A program made the position numbers and the translations under genes. From a virus (lineage: Duplodnaviria; Caudoviricetes): a stretch of 64,000 nucleotides of DNA. The stretch covers positions 67,841 to 131,840 of IMG/VR virus record IMGVR_UViG_3300032138_000524. The stretch is one strand, 5' to 3'. Shown here piece by piece: positions 21,142-61,901 of the stretch. Each line of letters begins with the position of its first letter. Positions within the stretch are counted from its first letter, which is position 1. The notes below the pieces were generated by a model. It saw nothing but the letters and a program-made list of their open reading frames with translations, made no database searches and was not told the DNA's origin.

Positions 21142-22314
21142 ATGATAAAATTTTATTTTGATTTAAAGGGTTATATAGAATATAAAGTTTCAGATGAAAT
21201 TAAAAAAATAGAAGTTATTGATCAACAAAAACTTCAAGATGGAATAGAAACATTTCAGGGTGAATTAGATTGGAAAGAAATGTGGACGGTAGATGATTCA
21301 GAAAAACGATTGGAAGATGGTTGGTGGTTTTATGTCGTAGAAAAAGATGATAAATATATTGGTTGGGCGTGGTTTGATACTGAAACAAAAAGGTTTTGTA
21401 ATTTATATGTTCATAAAGATTATAGAGATAGTGGATATGGTAAAGAATTGGTATATGCACGATTGAATGAATGTAAGAAACAAAATATTGAAAAGGTTTG
21501 GATGGAAGTGGATTCTTGGAATATACCTATTCAAAAAATTGGTCAAGAACTTGGATGGACACCAAAGATACATTATACATTTTGGACAGGAGGATATGAT
21601 ACAACTTTTTATGTATGTAAACTTTTGACAGAGGGAGAATTAGTTCAACCTATTTATATTGATGATAGGATAGATCATGGCGGTTATCATGCTAACCCAC
21701 TTATAGTCCAAAGAGGAGAAACTGATAAATATCCAAGAAATTCATTTGATATAGAACAAGAAAGAATGGAGTGGTTACGAAAGAAAATTTATAAAACTAT
21801 TCCAAATTCTGAAGAAAATTTTTTGAAAATGATGTTTATTGATAAACCTATAAATGAATATCCAGAAATAAGTAAAACTGTTGAAAAATATAATGAATGG
21901 ATTCCAGAAACTATACATAAAACTAAAAATAATGAATCATCTTGGTTAGAGGTACAAGCAGATATTGTATTACGATTTCAAAAAGAATTTGGATTGGAAA
22001 TAGAATATCCGATAGAATATATAGAAGATGATTGGTATGAAATCATAGATTGTGCAATAGAAGATGGTAAATTTTATTCTGAAAGGTTACCAGAAAAATA
22101 TAAAGATTTAAAAGTGTTTGGGGGATTTTCTTATCCATCAAGACACTTGACACGAGAAGATATGTTAGAGGTGGCAGAAAAGATGGGGTTTGATGATTTG
22201 TTATATTATACTTGGACGTGTTGGTATCCAACAGATAAAGGTGAACCTTGTGGTAAATGTAAAATATGTAAGGAGAGAATAATAGAATGTCGGAGTATTG
22301 GGGACATCACTTAA
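21142..22314 (+). CDS. GNAT acyltransferase fused to QueC-like PP-loop ATPase
   Basis: LYVHKDYRDSGYG (GNAT); WTGGYDTT PP-loop; TWTCWYP...PCGKCKICKER Zn motif. Confidence 0.8.
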   Translation: MIKFYFDLKGYIEYKVSDEIKKIEVIDQQKLQDGIETFQGELDWKEMWTVDDSEKRLEDGWWFYVVEKDDKYIGWAWFDTETKRFCNLYVHKDYRDSGYGKELVYARLNECKKQNIEKVWMEVDSWNIPIQKIGQELGWTPKIHYTFWTGGYDTTFYVCKLLTEGELVQPIYIDDRIDHGGYHANPLIVQRGETDKYPRNSFDIEQERMEWLRKKIYKTIPNSEENFLKMMFIDKPINEYPEISKTVEKYNEWIPETIHKTKNNESSWLEVQADIVLRFQKEFGLEIEYPIEYIEDDWYEIIDCAIEDGKFYSERLPEKYKDLKVFGGFSYPSRHLTREDMLEVAEKMGFDDLLYYTWTCWYPTDKGEPCGKCKICKERIIECRSIGDIT

Positions 22315-26863: not shown

Positions 26864-28051
26864 ATGAGTAATTTACCAAAAGGTCAATGTTATACAGGTT
26901 ATTTGTTTGCTAGATTAGACGCGGGCGGTAACTATCATATTTGTTGTGGATCTATACCAGAAGGTGGTTCATATAAAGAAGATGGAAGATTTTTAAAGTA
27001 TTGGAAATCTGATAAACTTAAAAAGTTATTACATGGATTAAAAACAAATTTATTAAAATATAATTCTATGTGGGATAATGCATGTGATGATTGTCCTCAT
27101 GTTGTAAGTAATAATGAGATATATGACCACTTAGATGGTGTAAGAGAGTTGCCTAAAGAGTATGCAATGGATACTTATCTCGAATCATTTAAATCTGATG
27201 ATTTTACATTAGCTCCTGTATCTTTTTCTTTTGAGATTATAAATTCTTGTGACCATAGATGTAATTTTTGTTGGAATTGGTCATATGATATGTTAGATAA
27301 TAACGCACAATGGCCCGAGTGGAAATCTTGGACAAAAGAAAAAATATCATTTAAGATATTCAAAGAAACGATAGATGATTTAATAGAACTTGGTAGTCCA
27401 GCACCATTTGGTAGTGGACAGGGTGGATGTGAAGATATATTGATTTGTGGTGGTGGAGAACCATTTTTACATCCACAAATTATGGATATGGTATCTCATG
27501 TTAAGAATAATAATTTTTATTGTCAAGTTACAACAAATTTTAGTAATAGTATTACAGATGAAATAATAGACGAATTGATAGAATTACAGGCAAATCAATT
27601 AATAATCAATACTTCAGCAGGGACAGAAGAAACTTATTGTAAAACGAGAAAAGTTAAAAAATCAGCATGGGATAAGTTATTACATAATTTAAATTATATT
27701 AGTAATAGAAAGAAAGAAGTTGATTCGGTGAATCCAGAAGTTATAACTAAGTTTATTTTGACAAGAACAAATGTTCATGAGATAAGTGAAATGATAGATT
27801 TGGCAATTAAAACAAAAGCGGATACAATTACATTTAAAAGGTTTTTAGTAAATGATGTTTATAGTGGAAAAAATTTGACAGTAACAGATGAACAATATAA
27901 TAAATTTCGTCCAATTTTAGAGGATAAAATGGAACAATATGAATTTGAAAAAATAATAGACTATAATGGAATGTATAATTTTAATTATGTATCAAAAAAA
28001 TATAATGTTACTTTAAGAAGTGATATAACTGGATTTTTTAGTAATTCATGA
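26864..28051 (+). CDS. Radical SAM protein with N-terminal SPASM domain
   Basis: CYTG...ICC...CDDC, then CDHRCNFC, GGGEPFL, TTN. Confidence 0.85.
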   Translation: MSNLPKGQCYTGYLFARLDAGGNYHICCGSIPEGGSYKEDGRFLKYWKSDKLKKLLHGLKTNLLKYNSMWDNACDDCPHVVSNNEIYDHLDGVRELPKEYAMDTYLESFKSDDFTLAPVSFSFEIINSCDHRCNFCWNWSYDMLDNNAQWPEWKSWTKEKISFKIFKETIDDLIELGSPAPFGSGQGGCEDILICGGGEPFLHPQIMDMVSHVKNNNFYCQVTTNFSNSITDEIIDELIELQANQLIINTSAGTEETYCKTRKVKKSAWDKLLHNLNYISNRKKEVDSVNPEVITKFILTRTNVHEISEMIDLAIKTKADTITFKRFLVNDVYSGKNLTVTDEQYNKFRPILEDKMEQYEFEKIIDYNGMYNFNYVSKKYNVTLRSDITGFFSNS

Positions 28052-36122: not shown

Positions 36123-37517
36123 ATGTCCAAAAAGAAAATTTTGTTACTTTCAGATGATTTAAGAATGTCAAGTGGAGTTGGTACAGTTTCAAAGAACTTT
36201 GTGCTGGGAACAATAGATAAGTATGATTGGGTTCAGGCAGGTGGTGCTATAAAACACCCCGAAGAAGGTAAAGTGGTAGATATGCAGGATTCAATTCGTG
36301 AAGAAACTGGAATAGAAGATGCATATCTTAAAATATATCCAATAAGTGGTTATGGAAACCAAGAACTTCTTCGACAGATAATGAATATAGAAAAACCAGA
36401 TGCAATATTACATTATACAGACCCAAGATTTTGGGTTTGGTTGTATCAGATGGAACATGAACTTAGACAACACATTCCTATATTCTATTATAATATATGG
36501 GATGATTTACCTTATCCAAGATATAATGAGTTTTTCTATGAATCATCAGATTTGATTATGAATATATCTAAACAGACTGTAAATATTGTAAATAATGTAG
36601 CAGAAACGAAACCAAGAACAGATTGGGATTGTACATATATTCCACATGGTATTCCTGAAGATAAGTTTTATCCTATTGGAGAATTAGAGGTACAAGAATA
36701 TCAAGAATTAGAACTATATAAAAGAAAAATATTAAATAATAAAGAAAAAGATTTTGTAGTATTTTGGAACAATAGAAATATTCGTAGAAAACTACCTGCT
36801 GATGTTATCTTAGCATATAAAACATTTTGTGATATGTTACCTAAAGAACAATCTGAGAAATGTGTATTGATAATGCATACACAACCAGTAGATAATAATG
36901 GAACTGATTTACCAGAAGTGGTTAGAAATATTTGTTCTGATTATGATGTTGTTTTTTCACACGAAAAATTAGATGATAAACAATTAAATTTTATTTATAA
37001 TATAGCAGATGTTCAACTTAATATAGCTTCTAATGAAGGATTTGGATTAGGAACTGCAGAGGCAGTAATGGCAGGAACTCCAATTATTGTAAATGTCACA
37101 GGTGGGTTACAGGATCAATGTGGGTTTAAGTTAAAGGGGAAACACGTCACACACGAAGATTATTCAGAAATACATTCATTTCATGATGATAAAAAGTGGA
37201 AAGACAATAAAGATTTAACTTGGGGTGAATGGGTAAAACCAGTTTGGCCATCAAATCGTTCATTACAAGGTTCAATCCCAACACCATATATTTTTGACGA
37301 TAGGTGTAGGTGGGATGATGTATCGGAGAGACTTAAAGAGTGGTATGATACACCATTAGAAGAACGAAAAGAGGCTGGACAAAAAGGTAGAGAGTGGATG
37401 TTAAAAGAAGAAATTGGAATGTCTGCTAAACATATGTGTGAACGATTTGTTCATGATATGGATACAGCATTTGAAAAATGGACACCAAGAAAAAGATTTA
37501 CGTTATATAAAGCATAG
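36123..37517 (+). CDS. GT4 glycosyltransferase
   Basis: NNRNIRRK, EGFGLGTAEA, GTPII. Confidence 0.88.
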   Translation: MSKKKILLLSDDLRMSSGVGTVSKNFVLGTIDKYDWVQAGGAIKHPEEGKVVDMQDSIREETGIEDAYLKIYPISGYGNQELLRQIMNIEKPDAILHYTDPRFWVWLYQMEHELRQHIPIFYYNIWDDLPYPRYNEFFYESSDLIMNISKQTVNIVNNVAETKPRTDWDCTYIPHGIPEDKFYPIGELEVQEYQELELYKRKILNNKEKDFVVFWNNRNIRRKLPADVILAYKTFCDMLPKEQSEKCVLIMHTQPVDNNGTDLPEVVRNICSDYDVVFSHEKLDDKQLNFIYNIADVQLNIASNEGFGLGTAEAVMAGTPIIVNVTGGLQDQCGFKLKGKHVTHEDYSEIHSFHDDKKWKDNKDLTWGEWVKPVWPSNRSLQGSIPTPYIFDDRCRWDDVSERLKEWYDTPLEERKEAGQKGREWMLKEEIGMSAKHMCERFVHDMDTAFEKWTPRKRFTLYKA

Positions 37518-37526
37518 GAGAATAAA

Positions 37527-37703
37527 ATGCCAAGAGCAAAGAAGAAAACGACAACGACAAAGAAAACAACGACTAAGAAACGTGCACCAAGAAAATCTTC
37601 AAGACGGAAAACAAAAGATCGTAGACGGAGTAATCCTGGTGATGTTTTTTGGACAAAAGTTATAAACGGTTTTAAAAAAGTTTTCGAATCACCATTTAAA
37701 TAA
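37527..37703 (+). CDS. Small highly basic protein, 58 aa (MPRAKKKTTTTKK...VFESPFK), not in ORF track
   Basis: AGGAG upstream of ATG 37527; fills the gap between two GT genes. Confidence 0.7.
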   Translation: MPRAKKKTTTTKKTTTKKRAPRKSSRRKTKDRRRSNPGDVFWTKVINGFKKVFESPFK

Positions 37704-37712
37704 GAGGGATAG

Positions 37713-39050
37713 ATGAGTAAACCATTAGTATTAGTTACAGCACCCGTAGGCACGAGAAGTGGTTATGGTTCTCACAGTAGAGATATAGTTAGGTCATTAA
37801 TTGCAATGGACAAATTTGATATTAAAATTTGGCCAGTTCGTTGGGGGGCAACACCACAGAATGCACTTGATGAGAAAAATCCATATGATAAACCTATTAT
37901 AGAGAGATTACTGCCGAACCCAAATATGGATAGACAACCAGATATTCATTTTCATATTGTAGTTCCAAATGAATTCCAGACAATGGGAAAATATAATATT
38001 GGTATTACAGCGGGATTAGAAACTACAGTTATGCCACCTGAATGGTTAGAGGGATTAAATAGAATGAATTTGAATATAGTTCCTGCTAATTTTATTAAAG
38101 AAAGTTTATCAAAAACAGTATTTGATAAACATGATCAAAATACGAAAGAAAAAATTGGTGAAATTAGATGTAATTCGCCAGTAGAGGTTTTATTTGAAGG
38201 TGCAGATACGGAAGTTTATAAAACAACTAAAGAGTTTTCCAAAGACCTTGTAGATACTCTCGAAGAAATAAAAGAAAATTTCTGTTTTCTATTTGTGGGA
38301 CATTGGTTACAAGGTGGTCTTGGAAACGATAGAAAAGATTTAGGTATGTTAATAAAAACATTTTTGGAAACATTTAAGAATCAAAAGAAACAACCAGGTC
38401 TCATTATTAAAACATCAGGAGCAACACCTTGTATTTTAGACAGAGAAGATATACTTTCTAAAATTAAACAAATTAAATCTACGGTGAAAGGTAGACTTCC
38501 AAATATTTATGTATTACATGGTGATTTAGAAGATGATGAAATGAATGGATTATACAATCATCCAAAAGTAAAAGCTCATGTTTCATTTACTCACGGAGAA
38601 GGATTTGGTCGTCCATTACTTGAAGCATCATTATCAGAGAAACCTGTAATTGCACCAAATTGGGGTGGACAAGTAGATTTTCTTAATAAGGACGCTATAT
38701 TATTACCAGGAAGTCTTAACGATGTTAAAAAAGAATCTTTACAAAAGGGAATGCATATAAAGGGAACACAATGGTTTACAGTAAATTATAATTACGCTTC
38801 TAAGATTTTAAAAGAAGTATTTGATAATTATAGTAAATATACTATTAAGGCAAAAAAACTTGCAATAATGAATCAAACTAAATTTTCACTTGATGCAATG
38901 ACTAAGAAATTTGAAGGAATACTTGATAAATATTTACCAAAATTTGAAGAACAACCTATACCAGTTGATTTGAAATTACCAAAATTAAAGAAAATTGGTG
39001 AGGTAAAAGAGAAACCAAAGGTAGAATTACCAAAATTAAAAAAGATATGA
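37713..39050 (+). CDS. GT4 glycosyltransferase
   Basis: SGYG, DRKD, GEGFGRPLLEA. Confidence 0.88.
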   Translation: MSKPLVLVTAPVGTRSGYGSHSRDIVRSLIAMDKFDIKIWPVRWGATPQNALDEKNPYDKPIIERLLPNPNMDRQPDIHFHIVVPNEFQTMGKYNIGITAGLETTVMPPEWLEGLNRMNLNIVPANFIKESLSKTVFDKHDQNTKEKIGEIRCNSPVEVLFEGADTEVYKTTKEFSKDLVDTLEEIKENFCFLFVGHWLQGGLGNDRKDLGMLIKTFLETFKNQKKQPGLIIKTSGATPCILDREDILSKIKQIKSTVKGRLPNIYVLHGDLEDDEMNGLYNHPKVKAHVSFTHGEGFGRPLLEASLSEKPVIAPNWGGQVDFLNKDAILLPGSLNDVKKESLQKGMHIKGTQWFTVNYNYASKILKEVFDNYSKYTIKAKKLAIMNQTKFSLDAMTKKFEGILDKYLPKFEEQPIPVDLKLPKLKKIGEVKEKPKVELPKLKKI

Positions 39051-60280: not shown

Positions 60281-60538
60281 GTGGCTAGTTTACCAACAGG
60301 ACCAGATGAAATACATGGTGGAGATGGATTGCCCGATTGGATGCAATTTACCATTACAGTTGCCATGTTTGGAGTTTTTGGTTGGATAATATGGTTATTA
60401 TTTTCACCAACAATGACTTTAGATGAGAAGTTTAGAGATTTACTTAATATTATAGTTGGTGGATTTTTAGCATCATTTGGTAAAGTTGTGGATTTTTGGT
60501 TTAAACACGATAAGACTACTAAAAGGAAAACTCAATGA
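60281..60538 (+). CDS. Holin-like two-TM protein
   Basis: Two TM helices, basic C-terminus, VVDFWF; directly upstream of the endolysin. Confidence 0.6.
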   Translation: MASLPTGPDEIHGGDGLPDWMQFTITVAMFGVFGWIIWLLFSPTMTLDEKFRDLLNIIVGGFLASFGKVVDFWFKHDKTTKRKTQ

Positions 60539-61140
60539 TAGAAGTTATAATAAACTTTATTAAAAGTCTATTTATTAAAGATAAAGAAGAGCCCACGATG
60601 GAGGCACTTCATAATATTAGTATTCCAATGGATACAATTACTAAAGTGGAGAAAGAAGAAATGTCAAAATTCGATGAAATTATAGAAGGTGTATTAAAAC
60701 ACGAAGGTGGATATGTAAATGATCCGACAGATTTAGGCGGTGAGACTAATTTCGGCATAACTAAACGATTCTATCCCGATGTAGACATAAAGAATCTTAC
60801 AGAAGAAGGTGCAAAGGAAATCTACAAGAAAGATTATTGGGATAAGAACAAAGTAGATGATTTACCAGATGATTTAAAACATATCTATTTTGATATGTGT
60901 GTGAATCAAGGTAGGGGAACTGCCGTCAGAGTATTACAACGGGCAATAAATGGTAAAGGTGGTAAAATAGCAGTAGATGGTGGATTTGGTCCAGGTACTA
61001 AGGGTGCATTAGCAAAATATAAACCATCCGTAGAGAGAGTTCGTTGTTATAGATTAAAACATTATTATGATTTAGTTAATAAGAAACCAGAACAAGAAAA
61101 ATTCTTATTCGGTTGGTATAGAAGAGCATTAGAAGTATAA
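60535..61140 (+). CDS. Endolysin, glycoside hydrolase family 108 with peptidoglycan-binding domain
   Basis: HEGGYVNDPTDLGGETNFGI, LQRA, DGGFGPGT, FLFGW. Confidence 0.92.
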   Translation: MIEVIINFIKSLFIKDKEEPTMEALHNISIPMDTITKVEKEEMSKFDEIIEGVLKHEGGYVNDPTDLGGETNFGITKRFYPDVDIKNLTEEGAKEIYKKDYWDKNKVDDLPDDLKHIYFDMCVNQGRGTAVRVLQRAINGKGGKIAVDGGFGPGTKGALAKYKPSVERVRCYRLKHYYDLVNKKPEQEKFLFGWYRRALEV

Positions 61141-61170
61141 CTTTTTTATATATACTATATTTATTATCGA

Positions 61171-61188
61171 ATGTGAAAGATTTCACAT
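61171..61188. promoter_or_regulatory. Palindrome ATGTGAAA-GA-TTTCACAT (TGTGA-N6-TCACA, CRP-family-like box)
   Basis: Perfect 8-bp inverted repeat. Confidence 0.45.
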
Positions 61189-61307
61189 CACCTGAAGGAT
61201 GGGGAGCATAGTTACTTGACAGGAAATACTCTTGAACACTCATTCGCGATAAAAGTGTAAAGTTTTTTCAAAACAATTACACCCGCTCTACTTCAGACCT
61301 GATGTGA
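61183..61307 (+). ncRNA. Putative structured non-coding RNA or leader
   Basis: Nested complementary pairs TCACATCA/TGATGTGA, CTGAAG/CTTCAG, GGAGC/GCTCT, GTGTAA/TTACAC in the largest intergenic gap. Confidence 0.55.
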
Positions 61308-61344
61308 CCACTAACAAATAAAAAATAATAAATGGAGATTGACC

Positions 61345-61638
61345 GTGAGTGATTCACCCAAATGGTATAATAACATGGAGAAGTTTACCTTGAACGGACA
61401 AGACAAAAAAGATTTAAATGTGATATTAGAAAGAATGGAACAGGCTGATAAAGACCGTGACCAGATGCATACTGATATCAAATTCATTAAAGAAAATTTA
61501 TTCAATCCCCATGAAGGATTATGGCAAGAGTCTAAACAGAATACTCAGTTTAGAAAAGATACTACGAAATGGCGTGGTATAATTGGGGCAGGTTTCGTAG
61601 GGTTATTTTTTAAACAAATGTATGATTTATTTGTATAA
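61345..61638 (+). CDS. Coiled-coil protein with C-terminal TM helix (XhlA/holin-like)
   Basis: Heptads, then WRGIIGAGFVGLFF; GGAG before GTG 61345; alternative ATG 61375. Confidence 0.55.
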   Translation: MSDSPKWYNNMEKFTLNGQDKKDLNVILERMEQADKDRDQMHTDIKFIKENLFNPHEGLWQESKQNTQFRKDTTKWRGIIGAGFVGLFFKQMYDLFV

Positions 61639-61700
61639 GCCGTAACATCTCGAGCTCTGTTCGGCAAGATTTTTATTAACGCGTGTTATAGGAGAGTAAT

Positions 61701-61901
61701 ATGAAGAACATATTAAAACTCATCCTTTCGGTATTTATCTTCTTTGGAGCAGTACCTACAGTATCATCGATGGACTATAGTGAAAAAGCCAGTATGTCGG
61801 AAGAAGTAAAGAAAAAGAAGAAGAAAAAAGGTAAGAAGATACAAAAAGGAACAAAGAAAAAGAAGAAGGGATTCTTCAGTAAAGTATTTGGTTCTAAGTA
61901 A
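61701..61901 (+). CDS. Signal-peptide-bearing poly-Lys peptide with C-terminal amphipathic helix
   Basis: AGGAG RBS; hydrophobic N-terminus; 17 Lys in the last 30 aa; ends GFFSKVFGSK. Confidence 0.75.
   Translation: MKNILKLILSVFIFFGAVPTVSSMDYSEKASMSEEVKKKKKKKGKKIQKGTKKKKKGFFSKVFGSK

Follow-up and report, generated by a model that had tools for sequence, protein, structure and literature searches.

A structured RNA family of marine phages, absent from Rfam 15, as a candidate cis-acting leader of a lysis-associated gene

The intergenic locus and the anatomy of the element

The DNA analysed here, called the window throughout, corresponds to the final 64 kb of an IMG/VR virus record of 131.8 kb, in which 148 of the 149 ORF-defined genes lie on the + strand and non-coding sequence makes up 4.2% of the DNA of the whole record. 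The gap that hosts the element (61141-61344) is bordered on its 5′ side by a gene (60535-61140, + strand) for a GH108 endolysin with a PG_binding_3 domain (PF05838, E 1.2e-26; PF09374, E 4e-12; PHROG 315 endolysin, E 1e-51), which is also the usual upstream neighbour in other carriers, and on its 3′ side by the gene dn (61345-61638, + strand), which encodes 97 aa with a C-terminal transmembrane segment. The dn product is weakly XhlA-like, with a weak match to PHROG 1193 'hemolysin' (E 9e-4) as its sole family match and none in a Pfam search; 94 relatives of it occur in IMG/VR, and no homologue was found among 50,697 cultured-phage records. A terminator-like hairpin with a T-run (61650-61674, + strand), identified by consensus match only, closes the cassette. 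An initial annotation of the sequence had placed a structured element in this gap, directly upstream of a gene for a lysis-associated membrane protein, a position borne out by dn, and had taken the gap for the longest intergenic one, which it is neither in the genome nor in the window.

Several further features of the region were observed. The stretch 61150-61374 is the sole one with negative GC skew within 58-64 kb of the window, and, unusually for sequence between genes in a phage of 32% G+C, the gap is no poorer in G+C than the coding DNA. Behind dn, window 61701-61901 encodes a conserved small protein whose N-terminus resembles a signal peptide and which has a long poly-lysine tail (…KKKKKKKGKK…GFFSK), and a homologue of it is encoded at L467:2389-2658(-), in the record with a diverged element. 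When 10 long ORFs were sampled from the first 56 kb of the window, 5 fell into accessory-type families, namely two glycosyltransferases (36123-39050), a radical-SAM-like protein (26864-28051), an acetyltransferase/QueC-like fusion (21142-22314) and one family of unknown function, and 5 were without a PHROG match.

The element itself spans 61183-61308 on the + strand, from the 5′ to the 3′ strand of its closing helix P1, and is matched by the covariance model R1 with 81.2 bits (E 1.7e-16) as the one copy in this genome; it measures ~125 nt in the window and ~100-130 nt across the family. In P1, UCACAUCA (61183-61190) pairs with UGAUGUGA (61300-61307) over 8 bp; in P2, CUGAAG (61192-61197) pairs with CUUCAG (61291-61296), and in P3, GGAGC (61203-61207) with GCUCU (61285-61289), a 3-nt bulge separating the 3′ strands of P2 and P1 (61291-61307, + strand). 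The 5′ strand of P3 is part of an invariant 5′ core defined by invariant alignment columns, AUGGGGAGCAUA followed by NNUA (61199-61214, + strand), and its 3′ strand is part of an invariant 3′ core, ACCCGCUCUAC (61281-61291, + strand). Between the cores lies a variable hairpin domain (61222-61269, + strand) that comprises P5, placed by homology (GGAAA, 61222-61226; UUUUC, 61265-61269), and an inner hairpin (ACACU, 61236-61240; AGUGU, 61254-61258; + strand), and an A-rich linker, AAAACAAUUAC (61270-61280, + strand), which is AAARCAA-like in most subtypes, leads from P5 to the 3′ core. The A-rich, unstructured trailer (61309-61344, + strand) carries the Shine-Dalgarno sequence GGAG (61334-61337), in a layout that is the same in 43 distinct dn-type trailers. 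Together P1, P2 and P3 amount to a near-coaxial helix of ~19 bp with internal loops, and the comparison of homologues shows the predicted fold to be a rod of these three stacked helices closed around the variable hairpin domain.

All pairings that the initial annotation had listed, P1, P2 and P3 among them, are in the sequence. The inner hairpin it had drawn, GUGUAA (61255-61260) with UUACAC (61277-61282), is likewise there but is lost in close relatives, since L003 and similar relatives have an ACACU/AGUGU-type pairing in its place, and the centre, which had been described as weakly paired, is a set of variable hairpins. The folding energy of the 154-nt stretch first delimited was weak (z of -1.41 on the + strand and -1.14 on the - strand), but the element of the window reached -2.52 once trimmed to P1; trimmed elements of 18 other canonical members ranged from -2.2 to -5.1, and the diverged L467 gave -1.37. 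Folding energy alone is weak evidence for structure, and the comparative evidence is decisive.

Covarying helices around two invariant strands

The homologue search started from dn and endolysin relatives in IMG/VR, against which the gap was compared by BLAST, and this yielded close copies (L002, L003, L004) and distant ones with a different upstream gene (L021-L027). The dn loci L005 and L007-L010 keep the promoter-like box and the gene without the ~135 nt in between, and the element is therefore a discrete module. Pattern scans anchored on two conserved strands retrieved ~20 viral contigs and at least 120 metagenome stretches, and a degenerate pattern scan with 8+8 specified bases was swamped by chance matches. 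After duplicates and GC-rich chance matches had been dropped, 95 distinct members remained among the matches listed, all of them from marine virome or metagenome samples. The covariance model R1 was built from 23 representatives, and the 95 members were aligned to it over 100 model positions.

A scan of 95 related viral records with the model was positive for the 8 known carriers and for L467 alone. One other record holds two copies, one before dn and one before hsp20, and at L185:1362-3923 hsp20, GroES-like and GroEL-like genes stand in a row right after the carrier's second copy; a complete 216-kb relative was without the element by the same kind of scan. Candidate carriers outside this set did not hold up: the element is absent from the Pelagibacter phages Mosig, which gave no more than a 14-bit match (E 2), and HTVC008M, which gave a 19-bit match inside a head-tail adaptor CDS, and the BLAST match in Synechococcus phage S-CAM3 comprised 36 nt inside a CDS, had no model support and was judged to be chance. 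The same applies to 17 exact-pattern matches in 596 Gb of cellular genomes, none supported by the model and mostly in high-GC phyla (Streptomyces, Geodermatophilus, Planctomycetota), and a 23-bit match, L468, was spurious, as the sequence there codes for a lysine-rich stretch and lacks a promoter box.

Across the 95-member alignment, standard pairs occupy 97.2% of cells, versus 32-50% when the partners are slid by 1-3 columns, and changes on both sides occur in 8/18 pairs (158 cells); the observed covariation score was reached by 0/500 shuffles. Double changes affect 4/7 modelled pairs in P1, for example C-G/U-A/U-G at one and U-A/U-G/C-G at another, and 4/6 pairs in P2, one of which is UA in 41 members, CG in 30, AU in 5 and GC in 5. 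Moreover, G-U outnumbers A-C by 44 to 5 in P1/P2, and therefore it is the + strand RNA that folds, not duplex DNA or the antisense strand. P3 (GGAGC/GCUCU) is without variation in the 95 aligned members, an invariance that is partly due to how the members were found. Evidence for P3 came from L467:1501-1601(-), a diverged homologue in a related record (30 bits) whose promoter box, P1 and P2 are as in the family and whose P3 reads GGAAU/AUUCC, that is, two double compensations and one change of G-U to G-C. The comparison thus establishes the existence of the family, P1 and P2, P3 by way of one homologue, the strand specificity and the gene context, and the genuine + strand structured non-coding element that the initial annotation had claimed is borne out by compensatory changes that keep P1 and P2 in the 95 homologues.

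Invariant or near-invariant positions form two strands, RAUGGGGAGCAYANNUA on the 5′ side (core AUGGGGAGCAYA) and ACCCGCUCUAC on the 3′ side; the search patterns fixed 10+10 core bases, by which the invariance of those bases is partly built in, and when one core only was searched for, the other was still intact in all true members. The interior recurs as a purine-rich/pyrimidine-rich hairpin, P5, followed by an A-rich AAARCAA-like linker. By subtype the P5 site reads AGAAC/GUUCU, AAAAC/GUUUU, GGAGA/UCUC or GAAAC/GUUUC; its columns are 71% paired (86-90% in the outer three pairs), a support that is modest because the alignment there is not structure-aware. A GGG:CCC pairing of the cores, mutually exclusive with P3, can be drawn on paper. 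The idea that the AUG of the 5′ core opens a leader peptide was rejected, as the ORF ranges from 6 to more than 40 codons and has no conservation past the fourth codon; in this putative ORF the third positions of codons 1-3 are invariant and codon 4 varies only between U and C at its second base, and the invariant third positions point to a constraint at the RNA level.

Judged by these comparisons, the element is a structured phage RNA family absent from Rfam 15. Nothing reached the gathering score in the 64-kb window, nothing fell on the element at E<=10 in 60900-61700 or at E<=5 in 14 diverse members, and ARAGORN found no tRNA or tmRNA gene in the window, in line with the earlier statement that no known family was recognised. 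A previous screen of IMG/VR reported 10,006 unnamed structured RNA candidates (Fremin, Bhatt and Kyrpides 2023, PMC10690425). The present element resembles those candidates in its IMG/VR source and as a covarying intergenic RNA upstream of phage genes; the text of that article names no hsp20, lysis or endolysin context (Fremin et al. 2023, PMC10690425).

A promoter-like box, diverse downstream genes and competing pairings

The motif noted earlier just upstream of the element is ATATTTAT (61157-61164, + strand), with the extended lead-in TATATATACT from 61145. In the whole record, 18 of the 32 sense-strand copies of ATATTTAT fall in the 4.2% of DNA that is non-coding, as do 10 of the 11 copies of TATATTTAT, and the boxes lie 2-107 nt, mostly 16-71 nt, upstream of genes that include sheath-/tube-like ORFs. 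In 91 of the 92 members with enough upstream sequence, all but L330, ATATTTAT or the variant CTATTTAT occurs <=30 nt upstream of P1, and no -35-like signal was found upstream of the element in these 92. ATATTTAT is thus a genome-wide promoter-like motif of this phage that presumably acts as a promoter, which probably places the element at the 5′ end of a cassette that would consist of promoter, element, XhlA-like gene dn and terminator-like hairpin. By analogy with T4-type promoters, the transcript would start at P1 or a few bases before it.

As a side observation, (T/G)ATATTTAT(A/T) precedes structural and replication genes, for example at window 26415, 45347, 61157 and 62246, and ATATTTAT is the reverse complement of a T4-late-like ATAAATAT. 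The T4 late box, TATAAATA, has the sense opposite to the box here, and from the reverse-complement relation this phage group seems to use a late-type box opposite to the T4 sense.

The orientation of the element is always that of the next gene, which in 75 distinct trailers is dn (43), hsp20 (14, assigned by PF00011), a gene X (11) or another small gene (7), gene X being followed by dn in both records checked (L065, L131); small membrane proteins and an IscA-like protein are also among the downstream products. From the end of P1 to the start codon there are 12-52 nt for dn and gene X, and ~100-160 nt, with extra hairpins, for hsp20. Neither a terminator nor a second promoter separates element and gene in ~90% of distinct trailers. 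A second exact promoter box occurs there in 8/75, and a U-tract right after P1 in 4 hsp20-type variants (4/75) as well as in L467, outside the 75, whose element ends in U9; at such loci the gene can be expressed from a message that lacks the leader. At hsp20-type loci, for instance L262:622-730, three more conserved hairpins, such as GAAUAUCAA…UUGAUAUUC, were observed in the ~100 nt before the hsp20 start, and a second leader, similar to an RNA thermometer and distinct from the element, could be formed by them.

The 5′ strand of P1 has a competitor. In the window, AUGUGAAA (61171-61178) and UUUCACAU (61181-61188) form a 5′ hairpin, P0 (61171-61188, + strand), in which GUGAA of the leader pairs with UUCAC of P1. 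The initial annotation had read this as a built-in alternative fold, and a P0-type hairpin of at least 5 bp is indeed present in 32 of 59 distinct leaders, 14 of the 59 beating shuffles at p<=0.05, but it is absent or broken in many members. P0 is enriched in CACAUC-type members without being universal; some CAUAUC-type members regain it with other sequence (AUGAA/UUCAU, AUGAG/CUUCAU), types whose promoter abuts P1 (L065, L262 and L283) lack it, and it is broken without compensation in L339, L351, L389 and L406. The L065 subtype, represented by nine sequences (L065, L131, L322, L340, L364, L382, L402, L407, L416), has a conserved GGGUAGAG(A)CUC insert or bulge whose GUAGAGC is complementary to the 3′ core; in its GACUC variants, L322 and L402, the complementary stretch is GUAGAG. 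An outer helix between leader and trailer was rejected, as the mean best pairing was 4.06 bp versus 4.45 in shuffles, with 0/68 at p<=0.05, and in the A-rich, open trailers no conserved pairing to the Shine-Dalgarno sequence was found. Switching between alternative pairings is therefore a plausible prediction from the leaders in which the competitors occur.

The element as a cis-acting leader, and its alternatives

We propose, as the best reading and with a probability of about 0.4, that the element may be a cis-acting regulatory leader, and as far as the gene order tells, it most likely controls the lysis-associated gene behind it. A ATATTTAT-type promoter of the phage itself, a few bases upstream, would drive its transcription, and so the element would make up the first ~125 nt of the XhlA-like mRNA. 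The two invariant strands build P3 and the adjoining loops, and a protein or a small ligand may bind to this invariant core (AUGGGGAGCAYA and ACCCGCUCUAC). Whether the core is occupied would decide between the closing helix P1 and a competing pairing, which would be P0 in this phage and the GUAGAGC insert matching the 3′ core in the L065 subtype, and this choice would set the translation or the stability of the attached late or lysis message. A switch controlling the downstream gene, one of the two functions first suggested for the element, is accordingly a plausible description.

This reading is favoured by the anatomy, since a closing P1, invariant junction strands and peripheral hairpins of variable length are also the hallmarks of riboswitch aptamers, which the element further resembles in its 5′-UTR position and in the alternative pairings of its P1 and core strands. 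It is also favoured by the position, promoter-proximal, in the gene's orientation, near the start codon and usually without a terminator, and supported by the competing pairings, P0 and the L065-type insert, and by the terminator-like site after dn, which makes the window's cassette a closed one. Against it, unlike in riboswitches, no conserved expression platform was found and the Shine-Dalgarno sequence does not pair with any conserved strand, P0 is missing or broken in many members, and the downstream genes are unrelated, so that no common ligand suggests itself; the second boxes in 8/75 trailers and the U-tracts of the 4 hsp20-type variants and L467, by which the leader is bypassed in some members, argue against a purely cis role. 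With regard to the riboswitch class in particular, the family has a conserved aptamer-like fold with covarying helices in a presumptive 5′ UTR, while for the expression platform there is the P0-versus-P1 alternative in part of the family and the U-tract after P1 in few lineages. It is rather doubtful that the element represents a new riboswitch class in abundant uncultured marine myoviruses, one that would sense a host-state signal and time the lysis-associated membrane protein and hsp20-type chaperones.

In the main alternative, the element could instead be the gene of a stand-alone small non-coding RNA, acting in trans through its invariant loops, for instance as a sponge or decoy that takes up a conserved protein or RNA of the host or the phage, and mostly read through into the next gene for want of a terminator of its own. 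Its own promoter box directly upstream of P1 (91/92 members) agrees with this, as do an element that stays intact whatever gene comes next, two copies in one record and a core that is invariant across very different stems; in addition, the L283 type and L357 have a U-tract or weak A/U hairpin and then a second promoter before hsp20, the L330/L338/L376 type has a second promoter box before dn, and L467 has its U9 end. However, in the ~90% of distinct trailers that have neither terminator nor second promoter the element is tightly spaced to the start codon, and no target or partner was identified, which leaves this explanation somewhat unlikely. The initial annotation had loosely likened such an RNA to 6S RNA, a non-coding RNA of ~180 nt with a large central bubble that mimics an open promoter. 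The element is similar in that its ends pair into a long closing stem, and it too is non-coding and could act as a decoy, but it has 100-130 nt and a hairpin-filled centre instead of an open-promoter-like bubble, and 6S RNA (RF00013) gave no match in the window, the element region or the 14 members, so the 6S-like rod with a bubble is not upheld.

The sole candidate likeness to a target is that UGGGGAGCA (window 61200-61208, in the 5′ core) is identical over 9 nt to E. coli 16S rRNA 772-780 (helix 24), a universally conserved strand. For 16S alone, a 9-mer match of this kind has a chance of 0.02-0.035 and is not significant after multiple testing, and the covariance model does not align to helix 24. 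The core may copy this strand as a decoy for a ribosome-platform factor, a weak lead given that the 9-mer match may be coincidence; the phage also encodes ribosomal protein bS21 (G000:C1:1153-1293, outside the window; PF01165, 49 bits).

Less probable still is a constitutive 5′ module without sensing, which would shield the 5′ end of the mRNA or be the place where an RNase, double-strand-specific or 5′-end-dependent, processes it, on the model of the T7 RNase III sites. Sites of the T7 type are single hairpins with little strict sequence conservation, and those of T7 lie just after promoters. The element is like them, and like 5′ stabiliser hairpins, in being promoter-proximal, with P1 starting at or a few bases past the presumed transcript start, in preceding genes, and in its irregular helix of ~20 bp with internal loops formed near-coaxially by P1-P2-P3 (~19 bp); it precedes unrelated genes and is dispensable in close relatives. 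In contrast to them, its distal domain is branched and it keeps more than 20 loop nucleotides invariant over wholly different stems, which simple stabilisers or RNase III sites do not need, and its competing pairings would have no purpose, so that such a module is improbable.

A ribozyme of a new class, trimming the message at its 5′ end by self-cleavage, would suit the multi-stem fold, the small, strictly conserved core and the phage intergenic region, the usual habitat of small ribozymes, but the ribozyme families in Rfam 15 gave no match and no recognisable catalytic motif was seen, which makes it very improbable. A feature of the DNA, either terminal inverted repeats of a small mobile element or a protein operator of the CRP type, is hardly credible: a perfect TGTGA-N6-TCACA palindrome (61172-61187) does coincide with P0, and the module, which some relatives have and others lack, is flanked by inverted repeats, but the strand-specific excess of G-U over A-C in P1/P2 fits RNA and largely refutes it, no target-site duplication was seen, and a CRP/FNR-type operator was rejected because the palindrome, though perfect in the window, is unconserved in the family (its left arm differs in L004, L023 and L021) and unenriched, with 2 matches (<=1 mismatch) in the window versus 3.2 expected.

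Returning to the cis-acting leader as the preferred reading, the marine phages in whose lysis/chaperone region the element sits are large, uncultured and related to pelagimyophages, and to our knowledge very few regulatory elements have been described for this group. Structured RNAs that covary to this extent around a strictly invariant core nearly always have a function, and many orphan motifs with such traits later proved to be riboswitches or ribozymes. If the element is a sensor, marine phages would couple the expression of lysis genes or heat-shock genes to a signal, be it a chemical or a protein; should it be a decoy RNA, phages would have a takeover tool of a new kind. In either case the RNA, at ~100 nt, is small enough to be tested readily, the outcome of mutations in P1, P2, P3 and the core is clearly predicted, and the covariance model can be used to annotate viromes.

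Among known motifs, the manA RNA (RF01745) and the wcaG RNA are orphan cis-regulatory motifs of marine T4-like phages (Weinberg et al. 2010, PMC2864571). Like them, the element occurs in viromes and in the genomes of marine myoviruses, lies upstream of genes whose orientation it shares, has a multi-helix architecture with conserved junction nucleotides and is an orphan as to ligand or function, but it differs in having no sequence or structure match to them, another core and other genes (XhlA-like, hsp20). In one marine metagenome contig, L385, a manA-like RNA (129-331; 46.3 bits, E 4e-9, below the gathering score of 55.2) was observed; the element is not itself a manA RNA, since this match is separate from the element at 440-538. 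The manA-like RNA lies ~110 nt upstream of the element and hsp20, so that the two structured RNAs stand there in tandem.
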